A stretch of DNA of 64,000 nt from positions 360,778,001 to 360,842,000 of the forward strand of contig CM097883.1 of the NCBI GenBank assembly GCA_044892505.1, read 5' to 3'. The position numbers and the translations under genes were made by a program. Every line of letters begins with the position of its first letter. Positions within the stretch are counted from its first letter, which is position 1. Positions 17,371 through 63,500 of this stretch are shown in pieces. This DNA is from Schmidtea nova (lineage: Eukaryota). The notes under the pieces are model-generated. The model saw only the letters and a list, made by a program, of their open reading frames with translations. It made no database searches and was not told where the DNA came from.

Positions 17371-17604
17371 CCATATTCGAAATGGTATAATTTCCGGTTC
17401 CTAGTATATCAAATCTTTTAAAAGACATTGATAAAGCACATCTGCCTTGTTAATTAAAATTTGCATAAGTTTTTCTAAAATAAATGTTAAAAAATGAATT
17501 ACAAATAATCAAAATTTCCCATTTGTTGTTAAGTTTGACACTTTAAAATATAAATGAAAAATAACTGGTATACTAATTATTTACACGCACACTTATTTGT
17601 TAAT

Positions 17605-17920
17605 AAAATATTGAATGAAGCTTTTGCAGATAAAAATCATCACAAAATATGTTCTGTTACCAATGTTCTGCTACTAGGGTTCTGTTAGATTGGTACTTAT
17701 ACTTGAGATTATTGATAAATGAATAAAAATATTCAGTATGAGCTTTTGCATATAAAAACCACACAAAAGATGTTCTGCTACTAATGTTCTGTTAGGAAGG
17801 TTTTGTTACTTGAGATTATTGATACATGAATGAAAATATTCAGTATGAGCTTTTACATATAAAAACCATCACAAAAGATGTTCTGCTACTAAGGTTCTGA
17901 TATTAATGTTCTGCTAATAG
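17605..17920. repeat. Degenerate direct repeats of about 110-120 bp (3 copies) with GTTCTG(C/T)TA sub-repeats
   Basis: AATATT...GAGCTTTT.CA.ATAAAAA.CA.CACAAAA.ATGTTCTG at about 17608, 17728 and 17836. Confidence 0.75.
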
Positions 17921-19169
17921 GGTTCAACTACTGTGTTACTCATCACATTTCAAGTCTGAGTTGTTGATATAAATCACTGTGATGCATATTACGCATGTGT
18001 GAAACACTTTTACTGTATATGTCATGTTATGCATGTACTACATGAGTCATGCACTTGTATTGCAAATGTTATGCACTTGTATTGTTTGTGTCATTGCTTG
18101 TGTCATACACTTGTGGAATTCAGGAACATGCATATTTTCTAACATTTCCCTTAAATAATAATCGATTTTACAAATTTTAATTAGTATTTTCAGAGTAAAT
18201 TTAATACAAACTAGTAAAGAATATTGAGAATTTCTGTATTTATTAACCAATCATTTATTAATCAATGATTTTGGGTACTTCATGATGATATAAAATGGGT
18301 TAAGTTATTGTAAAATGATTGAAAAATGATAAAACAACGACCATTATTACCCTGTACATTCAATTATAGAAATCTTTACAAGTGTAAAAACCATTAATTT
18401 TCAACTAATTACTCATTGGCTTTTTATAATATGTCAAAATACTTGTATTTTAATCAAACTTTGAGTTAGTTTCTATAGTCAATTTCTTAATTGTGCAAAA
18501 ACAACGATTTTTTTATTCATAATCCATGACTAGTTGATGGGATTGGAGTGATATGTTTTCTCGGCATCGGACACTAGGATTTGTAAACTTGATATGATTT
18601 CATCATCTTTTTCTTTAGATAAAAGACCATCAATCAAATTTATAATAAATATTTCTTGTTTCATTTTATAAATAATCATAAATTTTCAAGTATTTATACA
18701 AATTTATCCAAAAAATAGTAATAAAAAATAGTAATAAAAATAATATTAAAANNNNNNNNNNNNNNNNNNNNNNNNNNNNNNNNNNNNNNNNNNNNNNNNN
18801 NNNNNNNNNNNNNNNNNNNNNNNNNNNNNNNNNNNNNNNNNNNNNNNNNNNNNNNNNNNNNNNNNNNNNNNNNNNNNNNNNNNNNNNNNNNNNNNNNNNN
18901 NNNNNNNNNNNNNNNNNNNNNNNNNNNNNNNNNNNNNNNNNNNNNNNNNNNNNNNNNNNNNNNNNNNNNNNNNNNNNNNNNNNNNNNNNNTGTGTAATAC
19001 ATATTAGTAATACATTTACAGAACACTTGCGTGTCATGTGCAGAACACATGCATGAAAAATTTAGAAGAAAAAAAATCCTATCCAAAATATTTTTTTCGA
19101 TATCTCGAACTTTCATAAAATTTAATTTAAAAAAAATTTCTTTGTTAAACGAACATAGAAACATTTTTA

Positions 19170-19412
19170 AAATGTCTTTGTTTGGTTTATCTTTTTTAAA
19201 GACCGTTTCCGGCTACAGCTTTGACGATAACAAAAAATTATTTCTAAGATAAAAGTCTTAAAATATTTTCATCTTTCCAGAACACTAATATCATTTTTCA
19301 AATGAGCTTTGGTTCAAGCTATAGGGGGGTTACTTTTGTTTGATTTATCTTTTTTGAAGACCGTTTCCGGCTACAGCATTGACCATTTGAAAAGTCTATA
19401 ATGAGATAAAAG
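19170..19412. repeat. Tandem subterminal-type repeat array split by the Gypsy insertion (continues at 36247-36560)
   Basis: The unit GGTTTATCTTTTTGAAGACCGTTTCCGGCTACAGCATTGA...GATAAAAGTCTTAG occurs on both sides of the element; the empty site reads GATAAAAGTCTTAG. Confidence 0.8.
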
Positions 19413-20399
19413 TGTTGAGGATACCTAAATTCAAAATAATATAATAAATAAACAAAATTACTTGGGGGAAAATTGTCATGGGGAATGACACGATTGATTG
19501 GAGCCTGGGAAAGAAAACGGAAGTAAAAAGGAATGAGAAATGAGAAGGGGAAACAAAAGAAAAGAAATCAGACAAGCAAAACGAAATAGAGGTCAGCACT
19601 AATTAACTAGTGCAAATAGGAAGAAATTCTAAAGTTGGGAAAAACAAAAACAACAACAAGAATTTTATCTTGACAACCGGTCAGAGATAATGTGGGCAAA
19701 AAGCAAACAAGCCGAAGCGGCAAAAAGGAGAAAAACAGAGGTTATCTTGACAGCTGTCAAAGATAACTCCGTTGCTGAAAAAATGAATGGAAAATCATGT
19801 TGGAAAAATGTAACAACAGCTGATAATTTTAAGTGCTACAAAGTGAAGAAGTATAAAAGGAGGAAGCATCTCAGAAAGAAACACAACATTGTATACAGAA
19901 GTGGTTAGAGAAAATATTTGAGAGAAAGCGTTTGAGAAAATAAAGCTAGTAAAATTCATTAAAAAGGAAGCAGAAAAACGTCCAGAGAAAGTTAAAGAAG
20001 AGTCAAAAGGAGAATCCAATAATTGAAACCAGAAACTAAGGGATAAGCAGCAGGAGCTTATTCAAGCGTTGAGAAAATAAAGCTAGTAAAATTCAGAGAG
20101 TAAATCCAAGTCAAATAAAGAAAACAACCAGTCAAATTACCAATTGTTATACTCCCCAGCAGTGAGTGATTTCGAACATCGATTATACACTAGTGCTATT
20201 CTTCACTATAGTGTCGTAATAAGCACTGTATAATCAGCTGTAGTTTGAATTTGGTCAGTTCATTGTAAATCGAAGTTATTTGTGATAATCAATAAAATTT
20301 CCTGTTGTCAGTTGTTATTGTGGGTCAATAAAGAGCACGTTTTGGAGTCAGGGTAATAATTTGTTAATTATAAAGTCACCAACGAAAGATAACCCAACA
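19413..20399 (+). repeat. 5' LTR (987 bp)
   Basis: TGTTGAGGATACC...GATAACCCAACA; matches 35261-36246. Confidence 0.97.
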
Positions 20400-20422: not shown

Positions 20423-20636
20423 CAAACGTTGGTGAGGAGCGATTGAAAAAGTAATTGGGATATATCCGGCGAAATAAAGTGGTGAAGAATTATTGAAATA
20501 AAATTTATTGAAGAGATAGTGAAAATAATTGTGAGGAAAAGAAAATACTAAACAAAATTGTGAAAAGGTAAATTATTAATTGTTGTAATAAATTTGAATT
20601 TAGATTTTGCGAAACTTGAGAAAATAATTTATTAAA

Positions 20637-23600
20637 GTGAGTCGATATAATTTACGAAGCAAAAGTAAAAAGGAACCCATAATGAGTAGTGAAGATTTGC
20701 CAGTATCAGTTATTAAAGAAAATAATGATTTTGCAAGTTGTCAAAGATTACCTGTGGAACAATATGGAGGAGATCCGGTTATTTTTGTAGATTTTATGAG
20801 TGATTACTACATGTATGCAACGGCGTACGGATGGTCTCAAGCGATTATGATTCAGAGATTACCTTTATATCTTAAAGGAGCAGCTAGAGAGGTTTGGCAA
20901 CAGATTGATAAAAAATTAATTGGTAATGATTGGGCAAAGTTGAAAGATGCGTTAGCTGCAAAACTTATCGGAGGAGATATCAAAAGATTAATGCGTCAAA
21001 AGTTTTATAGTAGAGTTCAAAATCCAAATGAAACAGTGAGCGAATTTGCGTATCATTTGTCAACCCTCGCAAGTAAATCATTTGAAGAAGACTCAAAACA
21101 ACCAGGCCTAGCCCAACAAATGCAAGAATTAATCCAAGACCAATTTTTGTCAGGAATAAACAAAGAAATAAAAACCGCATTATGCTGTGTAGATTATGAT
21201 AATTTTGATGAACTAGTAAAAAAGGCAATGAAAATCGAATTGAATTTGAAGAGCACCAAAAACAAATCTGATGTGTTCGCGATTATTCCAGCTCAAAGGG
21301 AAAGATCAATTACACCAACCCAAAACAATTGGGAGCCAGAAAATAGATTCCAGCGATCAAAAAGTCCATCACCCAAATGGAGAACCGAGTTAAATATAAA
21401 TAGACCAAGCCGTAATTTCCAAGGCGCTGAGAGATCCAGAGTGATCCAGTGTGAAAATTGCAAGAAGATTGGCCATTATGCAAACCAGTGTTGGTTCAAA
21501 AATAATTCCGATAGTACACCCAGAAGAATAACCCAAGATTATCGTACAAACGATAGGGGAACCAATTTTCGGAGAACAGTTCCTGATATAAAATCCAATG
21601 TTAATGAAGTGCAATGTTATCGCTGCGGTAGAAAAGGACATGTTTCCAGAAATTGTTTTTCAAGATCAAGATCACCCTCAACTTCACCTTCACCACAGAG
21701 AGACAATGTAAATTTGAACGGACAAATTCAATGCCATTTATGTAGAAATTATGGACATATTGCAAGATCCTGTCCAAGAAATACGAATAAATTTCAAAGG
21801 CCAATATTAAAGCGAACAATAAGATTTCAAGATGAAAATCCATCGAATGACAATATAGCCTATGTTCAGCAAGATGGTTTTAGAGAAAAGATCGAAAGCG
21901 ATGTTAAACAGTTGAACCAAAAACTGAATAAATTGATAGCCAAATTTGAATCGGATGAAGAAACAGATACCCACATGATGACGAGGAAAGAGTTGAGCGA
22001 AAGCGAGTCAGAATCAGATAAAGTACAAATCAATAAAGCTAAAGCCGACATACAAAGTGAAAGGAGTACTGTATTTATTGCCAAAATCAGAAAGTTAGTT
22101 GCGGAACCAGACGTAAATTCCCAGAAAATAACAGAATTATTTACGAGGCTAACTAAAATACCTTTAAGTCTGACAAAAATTAAAACTGTTATTAAACTTT
22201 GTGCAGAATGTTATGCAGCAAGTGTGGAAAAACGAGATGTATTCAAAGATTTTATGAGAATATTTGGGCAATATCTACGGAAAAATAAATGGTTAGATCC
22301 TATATTTATCCAAATGAATGCTCCAGATGGTACAAAATCCAACTATAAAATCGATGCATACGAGAAAGTACGCGAGCTAAAAAGAGAAGTAATGCACAAG
22401 TGTGAAAGTTGGGCGGTGGAACTCAAATTTATGGATCAAGTATTAGAGGATGGCGAATTCTTGGTAGATTATGGATTAATTCCTGGCGGTGAAAATGAAA
22501 TGCAAATGACGAATATGATCGCCAAGGAAAAAACAGTAACAAATGACTCTGACGAAATCAGATTTGAACTAATGGAAGCATTGCTTAAAGGAAACACAGG
22601 TGACATTATTGATAAATTAAATAATATTTTGAATTTAGAACTCAAAGTAGAAGACAAGTTAAAAATTCTAGACTGTGTTAGACCCTATATGAATGCGGAA
22701 AACGAATATGGTAAAACAATAAAAACTCTTATTCAAAAATTTGGTCAAGAATTCAGGGAAGAAGGGATTTATAATGAGCCATTCGTAGTACTGTTAAAAA
22801 TAAATGGTCAAGGAGTAGAATATACGGATGAACATTGGTATACGAAAGTGAATAAAATTCGTCGAAGAACAGCAGAAATCATGGGCAATGATGGAATAAT
22901 TGTGCTGACGTATAAAGGTTTTGAGCTAGACGATGATGAATATTTATTTGATTGTGGATGTATGCCACGAAAGCGTAACGAAGATAGATTTCTTACGGAT
23001 CAAAATTTTATTAATGATATAATTGCAGTGAAACAAGTGGATACAGATGAAGTAGAAAAAGGTTATAAAATTGAATTACCAGAGTTCGGCAGTGAAACAA
23101 TGGATAATGAGGATGAAATATCAAAGGAACAAGAAATGACAGAACATGGAGAGGAACAGGAAACTGAGCAGAGAATTGATGAAAGTATAATAAAAACGGA
23201 AGTTAAAAATGAAGCGTATATGACAGAAATGGAGATTGATAATATTACGGAGGAAAGACAACGCAAAGATTTATACGAGGTGAGATGTGAAATAATACAG
23301 AGACTCCAAGGTGAGAGAGGTCAGAAGGAATTAAAAGAGACTGAAAAGGTTGTACGTGCGCTGGCAAATGAATTATATGGCGAAGCAGCAGAGAAAACAC
23401 AAGTAGAATTATATGTGAGAAAAATTGCAAAAAAGTTGAAAAAGAGACTTTATGTGGTCTTGAGATATGTAAAAGACAACAAGGAATTCTGTGATGATGG
23501 AGTGATAACCAATATGATGACAGGAGAAATGGATAGAGATTTAGTATTGACAATTACGAGTTATATTTTGTTAGAAATCGGGACACATGATTATGTAAAT

Positions 23601-26600
23601 ATGGAAAAACGAGATGAAGTAATCAAAAAGGCGAGCAAAGTATTGTATAAGCATGTGGGCAAATGGATAAAGGAAATTGGAGGCTGGGAGAAATTAGTTA
23701 AACAAAAAACAGAATCATCAGTCGAAAAGAGAGAAAGTTACGAAGGAATACCGAGAGGTAAACCTATGAAACTTCCATTTATAATGTTTATGATCATAAT
23801 ATTATGTGCGATTACGACGCAAACAACATCTTTAATTGCGTACGATTGTTCTCAAACCAAAATGGGAAAGATTTATTCCATGGTGGACATGACAGAATGT
23901 TCTGATGCACACCCAATGAGTTTAACAGTTGAAAATGATGTAAAGTATCATGTATACCAAGAATCAGGCTTTAGACATGCGGTAGTAAGAGAGTGCATTG
24001 TAAAGAGAACGAGCTTTGTGTTTTATTGTGGCAAATGGAGTCACACATCACTAATTAAAATGTATTCAATCCCAAGGCCAGTTGATATAAACCCAGAAAA
24101 TTGCATGGCTGCGTTTCAAACAGGGGAAGTGAAAATTAGCCCCGAGGTTAAATTGAAAGCTAAATTAAATCATGCTATACGAGAAACAATTATCGAAAAA
24201 GGAACAATAAAGGCTAATGGGGATTGTAAAGGAGAACCGTACAAAATGAATGGAGAAATTATTGATCAAATTGTTGTGATGGAAGAGTATTTGACGGAAT
24301 TGAGAGAATTCCAAGGAGCTTTTGATGACGACACAGGCAAGTTACAAACGCATCCATTCTGCAATATGAAGCAGGCTAACTGTCAAACAGGAGAATCAAT
24401 TTTGGTGTACGAAGTTAAGACAAATCTATGTAATTTAATACATTTGAAAACAATGAGTTTTAATGAAATGAGTGGAGAACAGTTGAGAGAAAGACCGGAA
24501 AATTTGAATGTGGAGGCAAAACCGGACATGACAATCAGAATTACCCCATTGAGAACCAGAAAAACTCCAGTTGTTTTGATGTCAACTTTATTAGATGACG
24601 GTATGAGATTTATTCGAAAAAATGTGGTAAATAAATGTGGTCAAACGGTGTATGAGACCAATTATAAAGGAATTTATGTATCCAAGAAAAGAGTCGAGGA
24701 AGCTCAAGTCCAAATACATAGTACGGATATCAAATTGACAAATTATTTTAATAACAAAATAGACTATTTGTTCCACTACAGTCAAAGTATTATGGAAAAT
24801 ATTTACAGAGAAATGATATTAAACGATTGTAAGTTGAATAAAGAAATACTACGGAACAGAATGGCGATGGCAGTCACAAATCCAAACTTGGTAGCACCTA
24901 TGTTAATATCAGAAAACGGTGTGTTTGCAAGAGTATTTGGAGAAGCATTGTATAGCTACAAATGCAACGAGATTCCCGTGCAAATTATAAAGTACGAGCA
25001 ATGTACCAATGAATTGCCAGTAAGTGTTAATGGTAAATTGAGATTCATGGAGCCAATAACTCGAATATTGTTGGAAGAAGACGCGAAACCTAAACTTTTA
25101 AAATGTAACCGATTGCTCGCACCATTATATCGACTAACATCAGATTCGTGGATATCATTACCAGATCATAAAGGAGTAAGAAATCCAGAAAAATTAGAAT
25201 TAACAAAACTTGAATATTTAATAAATTTTACATCATTGGACAAATTAGCACAAACTGGGTTGTATTCTCAAGAAGATGTTGAAGAAGCCCGAAGAAATCT
25301 ACTATTTCCATCAAAGAAAGAACGAGTCATTACTGAAATGATTGATACTATATTACCAAGTGGTGAAGGCAAAGTAAATTATGATTATTTACTAACACCA
25401 GATCATTATAAGAAAGCAGCGTACAATACGATGAAAAAGATATGGGGGAAATTCATGTTTTTGGGACAAGCATGTGCAGGATTAATTGGAATTTATGTTA
25501 TGTTCGTGGTGATTAAAGTGATAATATCTCAAATACTAACTACTCATCAGCTATATGTTATTTCGGGATGGTCCTGGAAACTGATTATCGGATGTATTCC
25601 ATTTCTGGCAAGATTTGTAATTACAAAGCATCAATATAAAGAGATGGGGAAAGTCAAGTCACGACTAAATAATGACGGAAGAGACATTGATTCGAGTTCG
25701 GACAGCGAGAGTGGGAATGGGGGTAAAGTAAAAGTACCTCCAATATATTATTATAAAAACAGTAAAATTAAAATTAATGATATACGAGAAAAATCTAAAT
25801 CTTTGAATTTATTACAATCGGTACCACAAACAAGTGAAACAGACACATTCAGGCGATTATGCATTCCAAAAACTTTTCTACCAACAGCACCAATATATCC
25901 AGTAGAGAAGTTAAAAGAAATGAGACCAGTTGAAAACATTGAATTGACAAATGAGCAAATCGCACCAACTAGTGCAGAAATTGAAAGGAGAAACATGCTG
26001 GGATTACCAGGAAATTATGCATTAATGACAATTGGAAATAAAGGAAGACAGCCAAGAATATGGATACAAGTGAATAAACATAGAGTCGAAGCATTAATAG
26101 ATTCAGGCTCAAGCAATACAATATTATCAGATAAATTATTAAATTCAGGGGAAAGAGCACGAATGAAAAGCACAGAAGAAGTTGTACGATCAATGACGAA
26201 AAACAAATTAAATATCATTGGACAGATCAGAGTAAAATTCAATATTGGAAATAAAGAAATTGTTCATAATGCGCTAATAATGAAAGATAGCCCAGTAATG
26301 TGTTTGGTAGGGATGGATGTGTTGGAGCAATTGGAAGGAGTCTCTCTTGATTTGAAAACCGGAAATCTAATTGTAGGGAAAACAGGAAAAGTTATTCATG
26401 AAACGGGAGATGTGTTTCTAAATCAAACGTTAAGAGTACCACCTCAGAGTGAAGTTATTTGTTATGTGAATACAATGAGAGTTCCAGACGATGAATTTAT
26501 ATTTCAACCAAGTGAGAATTTAATTGCCAAATATGATACTCCAATATGCGACGAAGTAGTGAAAGTTCAAGATCAATTAATTCCTGTTCGCATCACTAAC

Positions 26601-29600
26601 AATAGCGACAAAGAAGTGTCATTTAAACCAAAAACGAAATTAGGAAAGCTAACAAAAATCCAAAAAATCAATAATAAAAGATTACCAAAAAATATTAAAA
26701 TATACAAAGAACCCCAAGTTGACAGTGCAGAGTTGACGCAAGAGCAAACACAAACATTTACAAAATTGTTGAGAAAATATCAAGATATTTTTGCGAAACA
26801 TGAGTATGATTTGGGAGTAACTCATATAATTGAACATGAAATTCCATTAATTGATGAAACTCCAATTAAATTACGACCATACAGAATTCCGTATGCGCAT
26901 CAAGACGAAAGCGATAGACAAATAAAGGCTATGAAAGAATTCCATATTATTAGAGACAGTTTTTCACCATTTTCTTCCTCTATTGTTGTAGTCAAAAAGA
27001 AAGACGGTGAACTGAGATTTTGTATTGACTACCGAAAACTGAATCAAGTGACAAGAAAGGATACGTATCCCATTCCGGTTCCTCAGGAAATGTTTGACAA
27101 AATGGGAGAAGCTCAATATTTTACTGTTATTGATTTAAACAAAGGCTACAATCAATTCAAAGTTAAAGAGACAGATAAAGGGAAAACAGCGTTTTCAGAT
27201 GGAAAAGGTTTGTATGAATTTAATGTTTTACCATTTGGTTTAACAGGTGCACCAGCGACATTTCAAAGAGGAATGAATTTTGTGCTGCGAGATATTCCAC
27301 ACGCCTTGGTATATATTGATGATATTATAATCTTCTCAGGTAATTTCAAAGAGCACATGAGAGATGTGGAAACAGTATTTAAACGGCTCAGAGAAGCAAA
27401 TCTCAAAATTAAACCATCAAAATGTGAATGGGGAAAGTCAGAGGTAGTGTATGTTGGACATATTATTTCACGAAAAGGTCTACAACCAAATCCAGAAAAT
27501 GTTAAGAAAATTAAAGATTATCCAACTCCAAAAAATGTTGATGATATTAGACAATTTCTCGGGTTAGCAAGCTATTACAGAAAATTTATTAGAAACTTTG
27601 CACATGTTGCTCAACCATTAACGATGCTATTAAAGAAAACCACAAAATTCGTGTGGGGCAAAGCTCAGCAGGATATTTTCGAAATACTCAAACAAAAGTT
27701 AATGATGAATCCAATATTACGATGTCCTGATTTCACAAAGACATTTATGTTAATGACGGACGCAAGCGGTTTTGCGTTGGGAGCGGTATTAGGACAAAAG
27801 GTTGAAGGAGAAAAAGATCATGTAATCGCATATGCTAGTCGATCATTGAAACCACATGAGAAAAACTATTCAACAATCGAAAAAGAAACTCTTGCTCTAG
27901 TATATGGCATAACAACATTTCGACAGTACTTAGTTGGCCGAAAATTCATTGTCTATACAGACCATAATCCATTACAATGGTTAATGAAGCATCGAGATGC
28001 AGCAAGTAAATTAATTAGGTGGTCGTTAGCCTTGCAAGAATATGACTTTGAAATCAAATATCGAACAGGAAAATCAAATGCTAATGCTGATACCTTGTCT
28101 AGAATTCCAAATGAGGAAATTAATAATAACCAGGAAGAAATAAATTTAAGAGATACTGTATTTGCAGTAGTTAAAGCAGCAAATAATATGGCAGAGCTAC
28201 AGAGAGATCAAGAAATGGATGAGGAGCTGAAACAAATAATAAAACATACAGTAATAATGAAAAAAGATAAAGAATTGAAACAATTAATCGAGGAAAAACA
28301 TAAATATGTTATTCACAGAGGTATATTAAAATATATTAAAAATGATGAATTGTTAATAGTGGTTCCAATAATACATCGAAATACGTTATTATTACAGTAC
28401 CATGACATGGCATTGGGAGGACATTTGTCAGCAAGAAAAACACTGTCGCGAATAAAACTAAAATATTTCTGGAATACAATGGAGCAGGATGTAAAGCAAT
28501 GGTGCAACACTTGCAAAATATGCCTGACTCGAAGAAATACTGGAAAGAAAATAAAGGTTCCTCTAAAACCAATGCCAATACCAGCAGCGCCAATGGAATT
28601 TTCAGCAATGGATATCATCGGGCCTTTACCCGAGACAACGAATGGAAATAAATACATTTTGGTATTCTGTGATTATTTAACCAAATGGCCAGAAGCGTTT
28701 GCTATGCCAAACCAAAAGGCAGAAACTGTTGCACAAATATTTGTTGAAGAAATCATATTTAGATATGGAGTTCCAAAGAAATTGCTAACAGATCAAGGGA
28801 CAAACTTTCAGAGTGATCTGTTTAAATCTATTACAGAATTATTTGGTATATATAAATTGAGCACATCACCATATCATCCACAAACAGATGGGTTAGTGGA
28901 AAGATTTAATGGTACATTAATTAATATGATCTCATCCTACGTGAATCGAAAGCAAAAAGACTGGGATCTGTTCATTAGACCATGCTTATATGCCTATCGA
29001 AATTCAGTAAATGAGAGTACGGGAGAAACGCCCTTTTATCTTATGTACCTAAGACGAAATAATATGCCAATCGATTTAGAGTTCCAATCACCAACTTCCC
29101 AATATTTAGAGATTCCAAATTATAAAGTTGCTCTGCAAGAACGTTTACAATCCGCTTGGACTCAAGCCGGATTAAAAATAAAATATCGACAGGAGCAATA
29201 TAAAGAAAGTTACGATAAAAAAGCGCATGAGCACGGAATAAAAATTGGCGACCTAGTGTATCTAAATAAGCCAGAGCCAACAAAGGGACTCTCAACAAAA
29301 TTACAAAGACCATTCAAAGGTCCGTATACGGTCTGTGATGCGACTGCAACAAATCTAAAATTGCGACCAATTAATAATAAAAAAGCAGAAACAATTGTAG
29401 TTCATGCCAATAGATGTAAGAAAGTGCCTGAACTGGAACATCAGCTACGAAATAAACAAAACAAAACAAATGATGAAATAGAAATCCGGCAAAAGTTCCA
29501 AAAAAATCCAACTCCATTGAGTTATATGAATAAAGTTTTATTCATAACGACAGTTTTAATAAATATGGTAACGAACACAGTTGGAATAAAAATGGATATA

Positions 29601-30326
29601 CCATATGCGGTCAATAAATTACCATCTTTAGAGAAAATAGACGTATACTTAATGAAAGTAGTTCTCACTCTTAATCTGTCAAGGAACAATTACAAAAAAC
29701 CACTTCGTAATAAAGGAATTTATACAAACAATCAATTGTTTGAAAGAAATGTTCAAATTGAGATGATATACTGGAATAAAACGAATCAAGTTCAAATTGA
29801 AAATTGTGATACTACAATAATTGTTTCATATAAAGCTGAGGTCGAGGGAAAAGTAACTATTATTATAAATAATAAAATTAAGGTGGTATTGAATGAACAC
29901 CGAAACAGAGCGAGAGTCAGTACTCAGAACTCAGGAACCGAATCACAAACAAGCAAACTCCTTATAGCAAACCAATGCAGCAAAGGGAAAACCAATCCAG
30001 ACCGATGGCAAACTATATGCATAAAAGACAGACAGATCTATTTCGTTCTCGATCAACCCTCTAAACAAACCCTTGATCACAATCTAACTCTACCATTAAC
30101 TCTTTCATGTACAAAAATCGAAAACTTTTCATTAAACTATAAAGAAAATTCATTCACTAACAATTGTGTTGATATGTTTTCTGTATGTATCATAATGGCA
30201 AGACCAAGAGTGATCTTGCTCATTTGCTTTATCCTCATTTCACGAACTGACAAAAGAAACAATTCTAATTGTGATTTTCAATATTCTGAGTCGCAGATAT
30301 CAATGCGGTTGGAATCAAGGGTGTAG
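20637..30326 (+). CDS. 3229-aa Gag-UBL-UBL-Bcl2-like-Env-PR-RT-RNaseH-IN polyprotein
   Basis: No internal stop. Gag core, 3 CCHC knuckles, DSG protease (26100), YIDD (27312), TDAS/EKE/TDH RNase H, HHCC + D,D,E integrase and a GPY motif. GTG at 20637; first ATG at 20682. Confidence 0.95.
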   Translation: MSRYNLRSKSKKEPIMSSEDLPVSVIKENNDFASCQRLPVEQYGGDPVIFVDFMSDYYMYATAYGWSQAIMIQRLPLYLKGAAREVWQQIDKKLIGNDWAKLKDALAAKLIGGDIKRLMRQKFYSRVQNPNETVSEFAYHLSTLASKSFEEDSKQPGLAQQMQELIQDQFLSGINKEIKTALCCVDYDNFDELVKKAMKIELNLKSTKNKSDVFAIIPAQRERSITPTQNNWEPENRFQRSKSPSPKWRTELNINRPSRNFQGAERSRVIQCENCKKIGHYANQCWFKNNSDSTPRRITQDYRTNDRGTNFRRTVPDIKSNVNEVQCYRCGRKGHVSRNCFSRSRSPSTSPSPQRDNVNLNGQIQCHLCRNYGHIARSCPRNTNKFQRPILKRTIRFQDENPSNDNIAYVQQDGFREKIESDVKQLNQKLNKLIAKFESDEETDTHMMTRKELSESESESDKVQINKAKADIQSERSTVFIAKIRKLVAEPDVNSQKITELFTRLTKIPLSLTKIKTVIKLCAECYAASVEKRDVFKDFMRIFGQYLRKNKWLDPIFIQMNAPDGTKSNYKIDAYEKVRELKREVMHKCESWAVELKFMDQVLEDGEFLVDYGLIPGGENEMQMTNMIAKEKTVTNDSDEIRFELMEALLKGNTGDIIDKLNNILNLELKVEDKLKILDCVRPYMNAENEYGKTIKTLIQKFGQEFREEGIYNEPFVVLLKINGQGVEYTDEHWYTKVNKIRRRTAEIMGNDGIIVLTYKGFELDDDEYLFDCGCMPRKRNEDRFLTDQNFINDIIAVKQVDTDEVEKGYKIELPEFGSETMDNEDEISKEQEMTEHGEEQETEQRIDESIIKTEVKNEAYMTEMEIDNITEERQRKDLYEVRCEIIQRLQGERGQKELKETEKVVRALANELYGEAAEKTQVELYVRKIAKKLKKRLYVVLRYVKDNKEFCDDGVITNMMTGEMDRDLVLTITSYILLEIGTHDYVNMEKRDEVIKKASKVLYKHVGKWIKEIGGWEKLVKQKTESSVEKRESYEGIPRGKPMKLPFIMFMIIILCAITTQTTSLIAYDCSQTKMGKIYSMVDMTECSDAHPMSLTVENDVKYHVYQESGFRHAVVRECIVKRTSFVFYCGKWSHTSLIKMYSIPRPVDINPENCMAAFQTGEVKISPEVKLKAKLNHAIRETIIEKGTIKANGDCKGEPYKMNGEIIDQIVVMEEYLTELREFQGAFDDDTGKLQTHPFCNMKQANCQTGESILVYEVKTNLCNLIHLKTMSFNEMSGEQLRERPENLNVEAKPDMTIRITPLRTRKTPVVLMSTLLDDGMRFIRKNVVNKCGQTVYETNYKGIYVSKKRVEEAQVQIHSTDIKLTNYFNNKIDYLFHYSQSIMENIYREMILNDCKLNKEILRNRMAMAVTNPNLVAPMLISENGVFARVFGEALYSYKCNEIPVQIIKYEQCTNELPVSVNGKLRFMEPITRILLEEDAKPKLLKCNRLLAPLYRLTSDSWISLPDHKGVRNPEKLELTKLEYLINFTSLDKLAQTGLYSQEDVEEARRNLLFPSKKERVITEMIDTILPSGEGKVNYDYLLTPDHYKKAAYNTMKKIWGKFMFLGQACAGLIGIYVMFVVIKVIISQILTTHQLYVISGWSWKLIIGCIPFLARFVITKHQYKEMGKVKSRLNNDGRDIDSSSDSESGNGGKVKVPPIYYYKNSKIKINDIREKSKSLNLLQSVPQTSETDTFRRLCIPKTFLPTAPIYPVEKLKEMRPVENIELTNEQIAPTSAEIERRNMLGLPGNYALMTIGNKGRQPRIWIQVNKHRVEALIDSGSSNTILSDKLLNSGERARMKSTEEVVRSMTKNKLNIIGQIRVKFNIGNKEIVHNALIMKDSPVMCLVGMDVLEQLEGVSLDLKTGNLIVGKTGKVIHETGDVFLNQTLRVPPQSEVICYVNTMRVPDDEFIFQPSENLIAKYDTPICDEVVKVQDQLIPVRITNNSDKEVSFKPKTKLGKLTKIQKINNKRLPKNIKIYKEPQVDSAELTQEQTQTFTKLLRKYQDIFAKHEYDLGVTHIIEHEIPLIDETPIKLRPYRIPYAHQDESDRQIKAMKEFHIIRDSFSPFSSSIVVVKKKDGELRFCIDYRKLNQVTRKDTYPIPVPQEMFDKMGEAQYFTVIDLNKGYNQFKVKETDKGKTAFSDGKGLYEFNVLPFGLTGAPATFQRGMNFVLRDIPHALVYIDDIIIFSGNFKEHMRDVETVFKRLREANLKIKPSKCEWGKSEVVYVGHIISRKGLQPNPENVKKIKDYPTPKNVDDIRQFLGLASYYRKFIRNFAHVAQPLTMLLKKTTKFVWGKAQQDIFEILKQKLMMNPILRCPDFTKTFMLMTDASGFALGAVLGQKVEGEKDHVIAYASRSLKPHEKNYSTIEKETLALVYGITTFRQYLVGRKFIVYTDHNPLQWLMKHRDAASKLIRWSLALQEYDFEIKYRTGKSNANADTLSRIPNEEINNNQEEINLRDTVFAVVKAANNMAELQRDQEMDEELKQIIKHTVIMKKDKELKQLIEEKHKYVIHRGILKYIKNDELLIVVPIIHRNTLLLQYHDMALGGHLSARKTLSRIKLKYFWNTMEQDVKQWCNTCKICLTRRNTGKKIKVPLKPMPIPAAPMEFSAMDIIGPLPETTNGNKYILVFCDYLTKWPEAFAMPNQKAETVAQIFVEEIIFRYGVPKKLLTDQGTNFQSDLFKSITELFGIYKLSTSPYHPQTDGLVERFNGTLINMISSYVNRKQKDWDLFIRPCLYAYRNSVNESTGETPFYLMYLRRNNMPIDLEFQSPTSQYLEIPNYKVALQERLQSAWTQAGLKIKYRQEQYKESYDKKAHEHGIKIGDLVYLNKPEPTKGLSTKLQRPFKGPYTVCDATATNLKLRPINNKKAETIVVHANRCKKVPELEHQLRNKQNKTNDEIEIRQKFQKNPTPLSYMNKVLFITTVLINMVTNTVGIKMDIPYAVNKLPSLEKIDVYLMKVVLTLNLSRNNYKKPLRNKGIYTNNQLFERNVQIEMIYWNKTNQVQIENCDTTIIVSYKAEVEGKVTIIINNKIKVVLNEHRNRARVSTQNSGTESQTSKLLIANQCSKGKTNPDRWQTICIKDRQIYFVLDQPSKQTLDHNLTLPLTLSCTKIENFSLNYKENSFTNNCVDMFSVCIIMARPRVILLICFILISRTDKRNNSNCDFQYSESQISMRLESRV
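20750..21773 (+). other. Gag capsid region and three CX2CX4HX4C zinc knuckles
   Basis: LPLYLKGAAREVW...RVQNPNETVSEF...DQFLSGI; knuckles start at 21450, 21615 and 21732. Confidence 0.92.
22299..22510 (+). other. Ubiquitin-like domain 1 (about aa 555-625)
   Basis: LKFMDQVLEDGEFLVDYGL aligns with ubiquitin LIFAGKQLEDGRTLSDYNI; preceded by a beta-beta-alpha pattern. No di-Gly terminus. Confidence 0.75.
22779..22990 (+). other. Ubiquitin-like domain 2 (about aa 715-785)
   Basis: VLTYKGFELDDDEYLFDCG; same layout as UBL1, 160 aa downstream. Confidence 0.62.
23268..23705 (+). other. Bcl-2-like domain (about aa 878-1023)
   Basis: BH2-like KVLYKHVGKWIKEIGGWEKLV (compare Bcl-xL TYLNDHLEPWIQENGGWDTFV), BH3-like VVRALANEL, and a degenerate BH1 at about the expected spacing. 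Confidence 0.68.
23766..25630 (+). other. Env-like glycoprotein, chuvirus-G/class III fusion type, with signal peptide and C-terminal TM
   Basis: MKLPFIMFMIIILCAITT signal, then LIAYDC; Cys pattern ...NDCKLNKEIL...NP...GEALYSYKC..C.NELPV...F.EP.TRIL...C; TM at 25452 onward followed by SGWSWKL. Confidence 0.85.
26040..26370 (+). other. Retropepsin (aspartic protease)
   Basis: VEALIDSGSSNTIL...CLVGMDVLEQL. Confidence 0.93.
26760..28110 (+). other. Reverse transcriptase and RNase H
   Basis: RFCIDYRKLN, LPFGLTGAPATFQ, YIDDIII, FLGLASYYRKFI, TDASGFALGAVL, EKETLA, TDHNPL. Confidence 0.97.
28380..29420 (+). other. Integrase (HHCC, DDE core, GPY/F)
   Basis: YHD..LGGH...C..C; AMDIIGP; LTDQGTNF; DGLVERFN; RPFKGPY. 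Confidence 0.96.
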
Positions 30327-30599
30327 TAAGCTACTATTTTGCATGTAATGACAATATACAGTATTATTTCCCTTATATTTCTTTAGTTAATGATTCTTTA
30401 ATAATCAATTGATAATCTTTTGTTGTAAAATATGTTGTTAAAATTTAAATTATATTGATGTAATTTGATTGGTCGAATAATCACACTGTAGGGGGAGAGA
30501 ATTTTTGGATATAATGATGGCGGTGGTTTTCAGAGTTTGACTTGGAAAATTTTTAAAGAAAAAAAAAAAAAAACGATCAAAATTAAATCTAAAGGAAGA

Positions 30600-32016
30600 A
30601 TGGAAAAAATCAACAGACCAGCAAGATTATACGGGAAATATTATCAAGAAAGAAGAAGCTATACAGACAAAGTTATCGTAATAGAAGAAAATTTGAAAAT
30701 TCCTAATTGGGTAAGGTTAGGGAATGAAGAAATGAGAATATGTATGGTGGAATTGGAATGGAAATCCAATACGAAATTTTCAGAAGTGTTAATAAGAAGA
30801 AACGAAGAGACATGGGAGGTTCATGTTTTTAAAGGAAGAGTAGAAATTTTAGAGAATGATGCAACGGTTCTACAAACATTGGAAACTAATTCATCATGGA
30901 AGATATCAAAAGAAATATGGCATAAGAAGATGCGAGCAGCCAATGGAACGGCTTGCATTGTTTTAGAATGCCGAGGACCAGCTCCAACAATCCCGGCATT
31001 AGAACAAATTATGACCAATGAAGAAGAAAATAGGTTACTCCCGATAACCGAAGAAATGTTAAAGCACCGAAAATCATTTTTGAGAAAACAAATGACAAAA
31101 GAAGAAATTAGAAAAAATATTATGTTCATGGACGCGGAATATGGCGTAAGTGAGCAAAACAAGATGGTTCCGCTGTCTATTTGTTTAATAAACTATGACG
31201 GAAGAATATTGTATAACTCATTAATAACCCCCAGAGAAAAGCTAAAAAATTACGTTACCCAAATTCACGGCATCACAGAGAAGATGTCAAGAAATCAAGA
31301 TGATCAATACAAGAGTCAGAGGAAAATTCAGCAATTAACGGCAAGGAAAATCTTGATTGGACATGATCTCCAAAGCGAACTATTATACAGTGGAGTACAG
31401 ACAAGGGATCTATGGGGGTATTCGCGATTTGGCGGCAGCTCGAGCATTGACAAAAAGAAGAGTCACAAGGAACGGGCAATGGTATAAATTGTCAATAGTA
31501 GCCGAAGAAATATGTGGCATCAGAATGCAAAAAGGGAATCATACGGCATTAGAAGACACTGATGCAATTATAAGAATTTATTTGGCCATAGAAAATGAAT
31601 GGCAGGATGATGTAGAGTGTGCTGAAACAACCAGCAAAAGAAAATATTCGTTAGAAGAGTATAGGAAAAGAAAGGCTCCAACAACCAGTGAGCAGATGGA
31701 GGAACCAAAAGAGAAGAGGAAAGCAGAAGTTCAGCAAATGGAACAAGACATTCACATGGTGGAACACATGCATATTGCTCGTGAGAAAACTGCGAAAATG
31801 ATGGTTGAGAAAAAACTTGATTTATTTAAAAATGCAATTGTGGAAATGGACAAAATAATGATGCAACAAAATAGTGTTGAAAAAGGAAATCAAACAAAAG
31901 AAGGAATAGTGGTCGATAAGATGATCACGTTCAATGGTGAGGAATTGGAAGCAACAAAGGTTGTCGTCACGTATAGAGGAAGAAACCAAACTATCAAAAT
32001 TGTAATTGATAAATAG
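30600..32016 (+). CDS. Accessory ORF2: cupin-like domain + DEDDh 3'-5' exonuclease (REXO4/ISG20-like) + charged tail; one frameshift near 31414-31418
   Basis: ExoI FMDAEY (31131), SICLINYDG.ILYNSLITP.EK..NY.T.IHGIT, ExoII ILIGHDLQSEL, then in the next frame IRDLA...L..VAEEI.G...Q.G.HTALED (31540-31557). Removing one G from the G5 run gives a 471-aa protein from ATG 30600. Confidence 0.82.
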
Positions 32017-58484: not shown

Positions 58485-59852
58485 TTATTGTCCTGCGTAA
58501 TTTTGTGGTGCCAAAAGCTTTGTGAGAGCTTGGGTTTGTGATGAGGTGTATTTTGACACTATCAGGGATTTGAGATCATCATACGGGTTGTCTGCGTAAA
58601 GCGCGTCGGCTATTTTCGGGGCAAGCTCGGCTATCAATTCAGATGGTAGGCTGTCGAGTAGGTAATCGGCGCGTGATTTTGGAAAGGAAGACGTGCGCGA
58701 TTCGAAAATGCGGAACCACGACGAGGGTGTGCCGTCGGGATCCAAAAAGAACAAAATTGGGCGTGAAGTGGATGAATAAGGCGGTTCTATAGTGGGTCGG
58801 ACGCCTCCTAAAACGCGGCAATGAATTTCTATGATAGCATTAGGTGGGATGTCGGTGAGTGACGAAACTGGGAAACCATTGCACGTCATGTAAAATTCAT
58901 TCCTATTAATCAGATGAGAGGTGGCGATATCAGTGCGCAGATCCGTGAAAATGGGGATTTGGCGTGTTTTGTGGTTGAAACGCGTGAGGACATATGTTGG
59001 GAAAGTGGCGAAAGAATCGTTGTTGTACATGGTGGATTGAGTGGGGTTGTGAGCGTGAATTGTATTGAATGTGTCAAAAAACTGGACAAGGTATTTGTGA
59101 ATTTTGAGAAAGATAATAAAAATAATTTTAAAATTTAGTATGAATAAAAATAATATAAATAAATATAATATATTATGTAATTTAATATTATAAATAATAC
59201 ATATAAAATACGACTCGCCCGATAATCCCAAATAGCTGTTGCAATTGTTTTGAGAAATAGACGCTTCCAGCTGCCACGCCGCTCCGTTAGTGGAACTGTG
59301 AATCACACAGGAATAGGAGCCGAGGTCGAGTTTACGCAACGGACAAGAATAACTAGCAGTTTTGAATTGAGGATAAACTTTACATTGCATGGTAAATCTT
59401 TGACCAATGACATATTGTTCAGGTAATGAGACAATGTTGACTGAGTATTCAACTGATTGCCTGTTGTAATTGACACTTTCACGCTTTCCTGTTTCTACTG
59501 ATTGACAGAATGTAGTTCCTGAGGCTGGTTGAAATGTCGAGGCTTCCAATTCCATTGTTGACCCGGTCTCAGTAGTTCCTTTAACAGCGCATTTATAAGA
59601 ACCCGAATCATCTCGTCTCAATTGTTCAAAAGTGATGCTGGTGTTTGCGAATTTCGGCATGACGTGTGCAGCTACTTGTTTTGAGTCACTTTTAGATATT
59701 TGACCAAATATCGTTGAATTTGACGAAATTGAGCTCGGTACGACAATATGCAACTTTATAGAAGATATCTGTATGAACTTTAACGACATCGATGACGATG
59801 GTGTTGATATTGAAGAAAAAATTGAATCTGATTTCTTTTTTACCAAAAACAT
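58485..59852 (-). CDS. Chimeric frame: Ser/Thr-rich + Ig-like fragments + intron-like AT tract + UBL(LGG) + Gag N-terminus
   Basis: DDSGSYKC (about 59600), DLGSYSC (about 59315), IEIHCRVLGG (GG at 58803-58808), SWFRIFE...LDSLPSE...NPYDDLKSLI. The element's own start may be ATG 59030. Confidence 0.7.
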   Translation of the reverse strand: MFLVKKKSDSIFSSISTPSSSMSLKFIQISSIKLHIVVPSSISSNSTIFGQISKSDSKQVAAHVMPKFANTSITFEQLRRDDSGSYKCAVKGTTETGSTMELEASTFQPASGTTFCQSVETGKRESVNYNRQSVEYSVNIVSLPEQYVIGQRFTMQCKVYPQFKTASYSCPLRKLDLGSYSCVIHSSTNGAAWQLEASISQNNCNSYLGLSGESYFICIIYNIKLHNILYLFILFLFILNFKIIFIIFLKIHKYLVQFFDTFNTIHAHNPTQSTMYNNDSFATFPTYVLTRFNHKTRQIPIFTDLRTDIATSHLINRNEFYMTCNGFPVSSLTDIPPNAIIEIHCRVLGGVRPTIEPPYSSTSRPILFFLDPDGTPSSWFRIFESRTSSFPKSRADYLLDSLPSELIAELAPKIADALYADNPYDDLKSLIVSKYTSSQTQALTKLLAPQNYAGQ

Positions 59853-60042
59853 AATCGGTGTTGATTCAGTTGATAAAGTATTCGATGTTTCCGTTGAAAT
59901 CCTATTTTGATTGAATGGTGCAAGTGAATCGATTTTTGCGCTCGGTAATTGTCCAAATGTAAACCCGGTTGATGTTGATGTTGCTGAGTTTTGAGAAAAT
60001 CCACTAGTAATAAAAACTATTCTGTTTGCCTCATATATTATA

Positions 60043-60060
60043 TCAGGGTTTCTGACACCA
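60043..60060 (-). promoter_or_regulatory. Primer binding site, tRNA-Leu-like
   Basis: TGGTGTCAGAAACCCTGA begins 2 nt after the LTR; the first 11 nt match the common Leu PBS TGGTGTCAGAAG. Confidence 0.7.
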
Positions 60061-60062
60061 TT

Positions 60063-60565
60063 TTTAGCTGCTGCAAATATATTTAATAAGACAAAAAAAA
60101 TATATTTAATAAAGCAAATTGTTCTTTCTTAGCTGCAGATATATCATCAGATTTCACAGTTGATTTAGTATTCTTTTCCTTCACGAAATAGCTGTATTGA
60201 ATGCGCTCTGGTATATCAATGGTAGAAATATCAATCTTTGTGCTTGTAGCAATCACTGGGGTGATTGATTGTACCAATCGCCTCTTGTGCTCACTGAATT
60301 CCTTTGTACTAATTGCGTTCTTTTTCATTACTACATTCAATGGGTAAATTTGTGGTTTGCTTTGGGTTTTAATTAGTTCAGCTTCCATTTTTTAAATTCC
60401 TTTTTGCATTTTGGTTTTTTTAAGTCTGCTTAAAGTGCCATTTTTTTGTTATTTAAACAATCCGATAAATAAATTAGTAATTGATTTTAATATATAAATA
60501 TTGATATTTAATTAAATTGCTACATACAAATATCGTAAAAACATACAAATAACGGAGGCACTACA
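60063..60565 (-). repeat. 5' LTR (503 bp)
   Basis: Minus strand starts TGTAGTGCC; matches 56621-57123. Confidence 0.9.
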
Positions 60566-63500
60566 CTTATTAAATTTAAATTATTTATCATTTCAAATTA
60601 TTTTAATAAATCATTAAAATATTTAGTTCTCAGCTGAAAACACCTGACACATTGAAAGGTGCATCTGTCCATATGCAGGTAACCCTCTACTTACACGCTA
60701 TTTGGGTTAAATGATTAACCAATTCTGACGCCTGATTTACACGGAACCATTTAATAATGTTACTCGAGGATTACCTGTAGATACCTTGTAGTTAACCGCT
60801 TCCTTTATCTTTCGCTCTTAAAAATCATTGTTGATGAAACTATAATTCGCATACTTGTTTGGAAATATTTGGTAAGATGAACTGAGAGTATCTGCTAGCA
60901 TTTGAAAGATTTGTGATGCGAAAGGAAATGATTCTCTTAAAAACGCAGAGTTATGTCGGTAATCGTCTTCAAAAAAAACTAAATGAAAGTTTTGAGGATC
61001 AGCAACATTTAAAATAGGCTAGTCATTGATGATGAATAGAATGATTTGGTGGAGCAGCAATTCGGCCATTCAGTCCTTCAGCATCCACAGAAATCATCAC
61101 AAATTTCCATATGAGTTCCATGCTCTACAGAAAATTGATAAATTCATTTCTATGACAGTTTCTTTTCAAGCAAATTGTTATTGGATTAAACACTATTTAG
61201 GTGTTACTTCCTGCCACTAGAACCAATAATGTCTAAGGAGTATCATGGGTATGGTGGGATTTAGAGGTGCCACCAACCTTTCCGTAAACAGCTGCCTATA
61301 GTTCATCATGTTATCAGATACAGTTATTCAAATCTAGCAGATCCTAGTATGACCCAATGACCCAATGTACCATTTCTTTTGGATATAAATTTGTGATTTC
61401 CGCTCTGATTTCAAAAAAACAGAAAAATATTAATTTTTTTAATAACAAGTTAAATAAATGAAAAATTAAAATTGACGTAATGTGTATTTTGACAGGGATA
61501 AGGGTGGGTGAATTGCGTACCAATAGCAGGAACGCGTCCTTCCAATTTAATACCATAAGGCATTGCTCACTACTATTTATTGCTTAGCAAATCGTTCTTT
61601 ACTAACTTTGTTAAATATTGCGTATTCAATGCGTATTCTACCTGGGTGCGGTCAATCATCCTACAAATGCATATTCCATCACGTCTAACTCAAAATATTT
61701 AAAAAGTAGTTCTAGTATGGTTTCGTCTATGGAAACCCGTTTGATCTTTTGATTTAATTAACATTTACAGCTGTTTAAAGCTCTACATATCACGTACACA
61801 AGTTGATCCCACACGTCCCCGAGGTATATCTCTGCCCACGTAGGCACTAAATGTGGTGACTCTTAGTTTGATAATTCACGTTGTCTTTTCGTTAAAATTA
61901 CATAGAATGTAAAACTGAGGACATATAGATAAATAATTACGTGAATATATGATGTCTAATGTCAATTTATATAAAAAATCTAGAACTGACATACAACGGT
62001 GGCTATAGTTGCAATAAATAGTAAATGTTATAATAATTGAATACAATAAAACAATTATGCAATATAAAACATGACAAAGAAACACTTAGTCCTTTTTACA
62101 CATGATTATCGACAAGTCCATTTGAAACAAAAACAAAANNNNNNNNNNNNNNNNNNNNNNNNNNNNNNNNNNNNNNNNNNNNNNNNNNNNNNNNNNNNNN
62201 NNNNNNNNNNNNNNNNNNNNNNNNNNNNNNNNNNNNNNNNNNNNNNNNNNNNNNNNNNNNNNNNNNNNNNNNNNNNNNNNNNNNNNNNNNNNNNNNNNNN
62301 NNNNNNNNNNNNNNNNNNNNNNNNNNNNNNNNNNNNNNNNNNNNNNNNNNNNNNNNNNNNNNNNNNNNNNNNNNNNNNNNNNNNNNNNNNNNNNNNNNNN
62401 NNNNNNNNNNNNNNNNNNNNNNNNNNNNNNNNNNNNNNNNNNNNNNNNNNNNNNNNNNNNNNNNNNNNNNNNNNNNNNNNNNNATTAAATAATAAACTTA
62501 ATGTTGTTATGGTAGTTGTAGTGTTTTAAACAATTGTATTTGTTTGTTTGTTTTATTGTCTGAGTATTAAAATTACAAATAAATGTCAAAAGGAAAATGA
62601 TTTAATTAAAACAATTACCAAAATAATATAAATTTTATGAACAATCAATGGATTAATTAAGGCCCTAGAAATGATGAAAGAAGAGTTATGCATTAGGCAC
62701 ATTGGCAGCTGATCGCTGGAAGGAATGTCTGAACCCTTTCTTGTAACTGTTAATAATTTGTGTCGCCATTGAATGTGGCCGCGTTGTCTACTTTTTGTCT
62801 GTTAGGAATAAGGCTAATGATCTGATTAATATTTTTAATTTTTGTCATCTTTGATCTTTTATCATTTTTTCAGTTGAATTTATTTTCATTTTTAGACAAT
62901 AGACCAACATCTTTAAGCACAACTCGAAATTTCGGCCCTGCCTTAAAGAGTTTATGGAATCCTTTCAAATGTTGGAATATATCAATATAATGATCTACTT
63001 TATCAAATTATAACAATAAATATTTACGGAGATATTATATATTCGTGTAATTTATACACGTCAATATTTGGTAATATTGAAACGGGTGGTACCTTAGGGG
63101 CTTCCATTATCAATTATTATTGTATATATTGCATATAAATGCTGACGAATATTCGCCCCCACCGAATTGCATGCATTCCATCATTCAGGATGATCACAAA
63201 TCCAAACGCACCTCATTCAGGTACTAACATTGTCGACAAAACAAAAACAAAACTGACACATTGATTATAAATCACCTTGGATGCCATGCCATCATCATTC
63301 ATAATATTATAATTTTCATAATGACATAATGACAACAGCAGAGCCAATAATTTATAATCATCCGAATTCCAGTTACACTAATACATCGCCATTGTCAGCT
63401 CTCACCGATGCTGTCCGTGTACACCATAGTACTCTCAGACCTCACTACGGAACATAATACTTATATCGCTAATAAATCATCATTTCTAGCTGGACTCTCG

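Follow-up and report, generated by a model that had tools for sequence, protein, structure and literature searches.

The window analysed here, a stretch of 64,000 nucleotides of the AT-rich, 1.25-Gb Schmidtea nova genome (GenBank assembly GCA_044892505.1, contig CM097883.1, positions 360,778,001 to 360,842,000), carries on its minus strand a 3,945-bp long terminal repeat (LTR) retrotransposon at 60565-56621, a Ty3/gypsy element of a high-copy family (family 1) in which a predicted ubiquitin-like (UBL) domain ending in Gly-Gly (GG) stands ahead of Gag. Read in the direction of transcription, the 5' LTR (60063-60565; 503 bp, with TGTAG...CTAAA ends) contains a piece recognized by host-gene comparison as ribosomal protein gene RPL6 (60115-60388) and, at its end, a first hydrophobic segment (60066-60120). 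The primer-binding site TGGTGTCAGAA (60050-60060), which reads N-G-V-R in frame, is followed by a variable in-frame cassette belonging to type A of five types (59220-60041) and by a second hydrophobic segment (59106-59162; Kyte-Doolittle (KD) score of about 2.9 for the 19-mer) lying within a stop-free AT-rich stretch. Next come an internal ATG in the context CCACC-ATG (59028-59030), the UBL domain (58803-58997) with its end R-V-L-G-G and its two glycines at 58803-58808, and a linker and Gag (57900-58802) with a DUF7041 N-domain at 58512-58727 and two CX2HX9CX3C motifs. A truncated pol in an overlapping frame, consisting of a Pro/Thr-rich spacer and a damaged protease (57172-58008), precedes the polypurine tract and 3' LTR (56621-57140, the LTR being 56621-57123). 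The two LTRs share 492 of 502 aligned bases (98%), and a 5-bp target-site duplication, ATAAG, is present on both flanks. Stops interrupt gag in this copy at 58485-58487 and near 58047, and its pol remnant lacks reverse transcriptase, RNase H and integrase; it is a broken, dead member of family 1.

An earlier note on this DNA had proposed a UBL ahead of Gag, and this holds: the peptide encoded at 59030-58803 on the minus strand ends in IHCRVLGG, and a DUF7041 Gag follows within the stretch 59030-58488. The fusion, which the note called direct, is in frame and adjoining, but a Pro/Ser-rich linker of about 20 residues separates the domain from the Gag N-domain, which matches Pfam DUF7041 at residues 102-173 counted from ATG 59030 (E 4.7e-7). 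The beta-grasp fold that the note had put forward for checking is predicted by AlphaFold2 and supported by Foldseek and VIA-align. On a 10-row alignment, AlphaFold2 models residues 12-76 from ATG 59030 as a beta-grasp with a predicted local distance difference test score (pLDDT) of about 85, with strands at 12-18, 21-27, 46-50 and 66-71 and a helix at 31-39 (pLDDT 76-89). The best PDB matches of this model in Foldseek are ISG15, ubiquitin, SUMO and FUBI, and the viral library returns ubiquitin-family proteins including the insertions of bovine viral diarrhoea virus (BVDV), none of which reaches E 0.001. Against ubiquitin, VIA-align gives a Z of up to 8.3 (values near 8 being middling according to the tool) with a root-mean-square deviation of 2.6 A over 68 residues and places model residues 74-75 onto ubiquitin 74-75; Gly75-Gly76 of the domain sit in the register of ubiquitin. 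The window domain scores 28 bits (independent E-value 1e-9) against a profile of 26 distant relatives, which gives nothing on the reversed sequence. The top PDB sequence match of the family profile is human SDE2, a weak match (E 0.027) over the last 37 residues, aligned on R-x-x-G-G. Pfam assigns no family to the window domain by itself, and a search of the ESM Atlas with the domain gave no usable match. We describe the domain as a predicted UBL of beta-grasp fold. Variants of the domain shared among family-1 copies comprise 11 nonsynonymous and 20 synonymous changes (omega 0.17 versus 0.59 for singletons; Fisher p 0.011), a substitution pattern by which purifying selection on the domain is shown.

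The glycine pair is conserved well beyond this copy, as the earlier note had asked of it. Three families of the same genome, designated 1, 2 and 3, were compared. In family 1, to which the window copy belongs, GG is present in 98 of the 99 rows printing the motif (rows that include repeats of one copy), while family 2 ends in R-A-R-G-G in 30/30 loci and family 3 in R-I/F-H-G-G in 3/3. In the databases, where word-index protein searches had given only 2 relatives, a full HMMER scan led to 150 listed representatives, 38 of which have GG 20-57 residues ahead of the Gag domain; the remaining ones mostly start too near Gag to hold anything upstream, and P0100, P0121, P0125 and P0141 have long upstream parts without GG. 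Pattern stretches in viral contigs (0/38) were not confirmed, and in metagenome contigs one of 285 was. The domains of the 38 relatives have a median identity of just 23%, yet their ends are far less free: P5 is Arg or Lys in 31/38 and P4 is Leu, Ile or Val in 37/38, with P3 variable. Leu directly precedes GG in only 11/38, so that of the LGG end described in the note it is the glycines that are conserved, and the typical end is R-L-x-G-G, a tail strongly kept while the rest of the domain drifts. After the glycines, P1' is Ser, Met, Ala, Thr or Gly in 30/38, Lys in one and Pro in none, against a Pro content of 10.5% in the linker (p ~0.015). Two relatives, P0014 and P0048, carry a near-true ubiquitin lacking Met1 (Pfam E 1e-22); their Gags are 70-72% identical to that of P0017, whose own domain is just 23% identical to theirs, and such similar Gags behind dissimilar domains imply that true ubiquitin can occupy the slot. 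A quick tree search over 85 Gag rows, which omitted 34 of 79 distant rows without a domain as well as P0044 and P0048, gave one branch (Shimodaira-Hasegawa-like approximate likelihood ratio 96) of 43 rows, 38 of them domain-bearing, and placed two further domain-bearing rows outside it. P0060 and P0132 are UBL-GG Gags of this kind, standing outside the main branch among ordinary CHCC (CX2HX9CX3C) Gags, and their placement in the tree hints at separate gains of the same tag. A predicted UBL domain ending in GG before Gag is a real, conserved feature.

The strong retention of R-L-x-G-G alone amid drift, the complete absence of Pro after GG and the true ubiquitin in the slot of one lineage make it highly improbable that no deubiquitinase (DUB) cuts here, that is, that the domain remains on Gag as an interaction module, or that the aspartic protease of the element makes the cut, the GG being a flexible relic; retroviral-type proteases favour hydrophobic P1 residues, which argues against the second version. 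This alternative draws its support from the low similarity to ubiquitin, from a Ser-Gly end in one relative (L093) and from the uncleaved internal UBLs of Burro elements (PMC6431247).

A release tag would be needed because the frame opens a long way upstream, within the LTR. The earlier note counted residues from ATG 59030, which is not where the frame starts: no stop precedes this codon for 366 codons in the window copy and for up to about 550 in others. When 84 copies were sorted into the five cassette types found between the primer site and this ATG, none of the five reference copies had a stop in its Gag frame, and the other five frames had 10-37 each. Leader length keeps the frame in 66/84 copies, the five inherited leader indels (24, 48, 360, 57 and 21 nt) are all multiples of three, and the point stops (13/13 among the 84 copies), like ordinary frameshifts, are each confined to a single copy. 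An AUG at 60388 in A-rich context, which is also the start of the RPL6 piece, opens the long frame in most copies; the length from the LTR AUG to the primer-binding site is in frame in 57 of 69 scored copies, and shared variants of the LTR frame have an omega of 0.41 versus 1.05 for singletons (p 8e-4, conditional on an open frame). In family 2 the AUG comes 117 bases after the start of the LTR; 28/30 loci are free of stops from that codon to GG, and a Met occurs between primer-binding site and domain in only one of the 29 loci having such a site. Among the database relatives, the translated primer-site peptide is met in frame upstream of the domain 15 times in 9,760 residues, compared with once in 39,553 residues downstream. 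The AT-rich stretch was also considered as an intron and is not favoured: from the donor-like GCGAGT (59218) to the nearest AG (59082) it would span 137 nt and break the frame, and the GCGAGT motif differs among copies.

The long frame bears directly on a simpler account, in which the domain is the plain N-terminus of Gag started from its own AUG in the manner of Sde2 or FUBI and cut by a DUB for a boost in expression or for an N-end-rule residue, the open leader being incidental, for example as a means of avoiding nonsense decay. An untranslated leader offers no reason for the in-frame indels and cassettes or for the omega of the LTR frame, and Met is lacking at the domain start in families 2 and 3 and in the near-ubiquitin relatives; this makes the simpler account unlikely, even though ATG 59030, absent from families 2 and 3, is kept in 96/97 family-1 copies in its CCACC context. 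The same account gains from the prevalence after GG of Ser, Met, Ala, Thr and Gly, which are stabilizing residues by the N-end rule, from the lack of clear selection on the cassette proteins described below, and from the tolerance of an LTR frameshift in the sub-lineage of the window copy.

The sequence read ahead of the domain is in part of host origin. The family-1 LTR contains three pieces of the host RPL6 gene (L151), to which they are 85-97% identical; the host GT..AG intron is cleanly gone and part of the L6 core is deleted in frame. The 3' half of cassette A (approximately 59240-59640) matches a host gene of tandem immunoglobulin (Ig) repeats at G000:C2:411.50-411.53 Mb, with 85% identity across some 450 bases. 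The window cassette lacks 48 nt of one Ig domain, a loss found in 43 of 44 type-A copies, and the Ig cassette is short by 42 nt at a 45-nt GT..AG intron of the host, so that its junction, unlike that of RPL6, is no clean splice. These nucleotide comparisons show that the pieces of RPL6 and of the Ig gene come from the host. Cassettes A and B are Ig repeats, whereas C, D and E are low-complexity sequences with no Pfam match; DNA searches for the donors of B and E gave only element-like copies, and C and D were not searched. All five types are found also in copies with pol motifs. Omega for the cassette proteins (A 0.72, p 0.3; B 2.29; C 0.33, p 0.09) gives no clear sign of selection on their sequence: by this measure the frame is kept and the cargo is not. 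Capture is not limited to family 1, since the family-2 LTR (L067:2177-2771) encodes, in frame with Gag, a nuclear-receptor zinc-finger piece (PF00105, E 8e-8), and the same type-A Ig cassette is present in an element of family 3 whose LTR is different (L070:2051-2767), from which it follows that cassettes move between families. Among the database relatives, the upstream parts of P0012, P0018, P0060, P0083 and P0042 match pieces of histone H2A, 5'-nucleotidase, tubulin, CNOT1/Rrp44 and SCC3, which may be true captures or chimeras of gene modelling.

Two of the five cassettes are thus extracellular-type Ig repeats, and in family 1 the cassette is flanked by hydrophobic segments 1 and 2, which beat stop-free base shuffles (0-7 of 300) in a scoring in which the type E leader was mis-framed. 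The type-C LTR, unlike in sequence, likewise ends in a hydrophobic run, and a single-sequence model of the whole leader (mean pLDDT 38) has the second helix as its sole confident part. These observations could be taken to mean that the upstream product itself matters, as a leader-UBL, free or anchored in the membrane, whose GG end is exposed and which is displayed on the cell, conjugated to host proteins or used as a decoy of the ubiquitin system. We regard this as very unlikely: segment 2 shows no clear selection (omega ~0.8-1.0), one Ig domain has lost its 48 nt in nearly every type-A copy, and cassettes C to E resemble no Pfam domain. A membrane anchor common to the clade was examined and rejected, as only 9/23 relatives with long extensions reach KD 2.0, only 2 beat residue shuffles and family 2 lacks such segments. 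A bolder proposal joins cargo and cleavage: captured host mRNA pieces would be translated and split from Gag by DUBs, making the element a self-renewing gene-capture vector, and in the family of the window copy the Ig repeats would be threaded across the membrane by the two hydrophobic segments, yielding a surface protein of host origin that tethers Gag up to the moment of cleavage and substitutes for an envelope. We attach little probability to this idea.

The reading we prefer, and consider likely from the sequence comparisons and from analogy with known precursors, is that translation starting in the LTR is followed by a host DUB cut after GG that frees Gag; it fits the conservation of the tail only, the missing Pro, the replacement of the domain by true ubiquitin and the fact that Met1 has been lost. 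Ribosomes would start at an AUG in the first part of the 5' LTR; a variable leader of host origin would be translated first, the ubiquitin fold next and Gag after it, with Pol made by frameshift or fusion. A host DUB of the USP or UCH type would cut after the glycines, and the N-terminus of Gag would in this way be fixed regardless of the captured sequence upstream, a tag that may let the 5' end acquire host mRNA by template switching with the capsid unharmed. In family 1 a second start at ATG 59030 may serve too, and the cut after GG would yield the same Gag.

Several observations weigh against this reading. The window domain is only 10-21% identical to the near-ubiquitins of P0014 and P0048, and at such a distance recognition by DUBs is not assured; L093, a close metagenome relative, ends in R-A-R-S-G; and P0015, P0023 and P0033, within the domain-bearing branch, open with their own Met and have no domain, so that the tag is either absent there or was dropped by gene calling. 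The 38 relatives were chosen by pattern, five of them by eye, and the family-1 copies were picked by protein similarity to domain and Gag, which lowers the apparent omega of the domain, for shared variants and singletons alike, and raises the retention of GG. As for the start of translation, a run of eight T at 60093-60100 throws the LTR AUG of the window copy out of frame, a one-base-short length found in 5/69 copies including this one; a further 5/84 copies (L075, L076, L083, L112 and L115) are frame-shifted by the primer site; the CCACC-ATG immediately before the domain in family 1 is a strong context; and in 28/30 loci of family 2 a Met stands six residues ahead of the GG end. The primer-peptide patterns were picked after the sequences had been viewed, and some of the long upstream parts of the relatives may be gene-model chimeras.

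The significance of the preferred reading would lie in who processes Gag. The Gag of a retrotransposon is normally translated from a Met of its own, and the protease of the element does the trimming. If DUB release is correct, a step of Gag maturation has been passed to host deubiquitinases, which is unusual for a retrotransposon and offers a directly testable host dependency factor. It would also explain how pieces of host mRNA (RPL6, Ig repeats, a nuclear-receptor finger) can be loaded in frame ahead of Gag with mobility kept. The 38 relatives, in which the tail alone is kept at about 23% identity, amount to a natural series of ubiquitin folds that may be useful for learning what DUB cutting requires.

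Family 1 is large and young, with 150 scored matches of 96-100% identity out of 6,220 first-look candidates. Its elements are 3.4-6.9 kb long and have a CHCC Gag and no env; pol motifs lie downstream in 16 of 37 copies (8-kb fetches having the primer site), and in sister copies, though not in that of the window, Pol, reached by frameshift or fusion, has the order protease, reverse transcriptase, RNase H, integrase (PR-RT-RH-IN). The CX2HX9CX3C motif is doubled in intact copies of the family, and at least one motif is present in 137/151 proteins. Of 23 copies with both ends found, 18 have a 5-bp target duplication and none a 4-bp one. The primer site pairs with the 3' end of a tRNA with a long variable arm, which by its sequence is taken as Leu(CAA), a reading that departs from the ARAGORN label, judged wrong. 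A long tandem array with a period of about 0.9 kb at G000:C2:300.51-300.60 Mb (L150) contains Gly, Gln and intron-bearing Leu-type tRNAs, and its tRNA pattern has 808 genome matches. In the five copies frame-shifted by the primer site, the 11-nt site has turned into a full tRNA complement, one base shorter, and a tRNA copy from reverse transcription seems, on this evidence, to be fixed there repeatedly. Several family-1 and family-2 copies are arranged in tandem, neighbours having an LTR in common (L032, L057-L059, L086-L088). The window copy has landed in an LTR of a second, decayed element of gypsy type (54200-56620 and 60566-60640), which has AT-rich LTRs and remnants of CCHC and protease.

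Elsewhere in the window, 203-nt terminal inverted repeats that are 97% complementary and 2,250 nt apart (16056-18711) likely delimit a non-autonomous DNA transposon, and 48016-49178 is taken up by degenerate tandem repeats of 16 nt, strongly skewed between the strands. On the plus strand, an intact Burro-type open reading frame (ORF) of 3,232 codons (20628-30326), with LTRs near 19160-19800 and 35350-36600, encodes a CCHC Gag, two stretches that look like UBLs, a motif that by eye is Bcl-2-like, a fusion glycoprotein and PR-RT-RH-IN, and an element of this type points to a flatworm host; after its pol, two overlapping ORFs (30492-32016, plus strand) resemble by eye a frameshifted DEDDh exonuclease. 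The suggestion in the earlier note that two elements of the window both use UBLs is true loosely. Burro/GYPSM1 elements too have a ubiquitin-type motif within the polyprotein of an LTR element, described as Ubi2/SUMO-like, but it is internal and downstream of the CCHC Gag (PMC6431247); in the window it has no terminal GG by eye, and the UBL-looking stretches give no match to the family-1 domain profile. Family-1 elements do not have the Burro/GYPSM1 layout of a giant ORF with CCHC Gag, Bcl-2-like and Env domains.

A full-text literature search judged by titles and abstract openings, mostly outside subscription journals and without Repbase or GyDB, found no report of a UBL fused to retrotransposon Gag, and by a term look-up ubiquitin is not mentioned in PMC6338049 or PMC2774666. 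The LTRs, primer-binding site, polypurine tract and target duplication, together with the PR-RT-RH-IN order of the sister copies, identify the element as Ty3/gypsy. A Mag clade label was abandoned after the CHCC motif had been recognized. This motif and a fused or overlapping gag/pol are shared with the CsRn1 clade (CsRn1, Kabuki, PwRn1, AgCR; PMC2582038), from which the family differs in the doubling of the motif, a Leu-type rather than Trp primer, a 5-bp rather than 4-bp duplication and an LTR-started leader with a UBL (PMC2582038); it is not filed there because the primer was not tRNA-Trp and the duplication not 4 bp. Clade names only are taken from PMC6238403. Membrane-protein coding ahead of gag, in a gypsy element that lacks env, is also known from sORF1 and sORF2 of the MDG1 group; those short ORFs are separate from gag and include a myristoylation motif (bioRxiv 10.1101/2025.03.14.642691), whereas the hydrophobic segments described here are in frame with Gag and not clade-wide. 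The capture of host sequence is like LTR-mediated retroposition, in which spliced host mRNA, sometimes of several genes and often in frame, is acquired via template switching (Tan et al. 2016, PMC5131818); there the captured sequence stands in place of the interior of an element that is disabled (PMC5131818), while here it lies upstream of an intact Gag frame.

For the tag itself, the nearest parallels are found among DUB-cut fusion precursors, with which it has in common a predicted beta-grasp and a conserved di-glycine at ubiquitin 75-76, L093 excepted. The FUBI-ribosomal protein precursor is cleaved after its domain, and Sde2 and the ubiquitin and FUBI precursors likewise place a divergent ubiquitin fold with a GG end ahead of a working protein. 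Those domains are N-terminal and belong to host genes, whereas the domain described here is usually internal and followed mostly by Ser, Met, Ala, Asn, Thr or Gly. Sde2 is cut by DUBs at GG-K (PMC9508853); the near absence of Lys after GG in our relatives, and the Gag that follows in place of an Sde2 C-terminal domain, set them apart from the Sde2 family. A host Sde2 sought by PF13019 gave no match, and neither did the controls. A functional likeness is also offered by the pestivirus BVDV, in strains Osloss, CP1 and CP Rit, where host ubiquitin, preceded by other captured host sequence, lies inside the polyprotein ahead of NS3 and cellular hydrolases set the next N-terminus (PMC8310069); CP Rit has a piece of host S27a together with ubiquitin, and cleavage by cellular UCHs produces the authentic NS3 (PMC8310069). 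In the pestivirus this is the product of sporadic recombination and involves a near-intact ubiquitin in an RNA virus (PMC8310069), whereas here the domain is fixed, deeply diverged and placed before the capsid of a retrotransposon; if DUB release is correct, a trick that arises sporadically in pestiviruses would have become a stable, inherited strategy.
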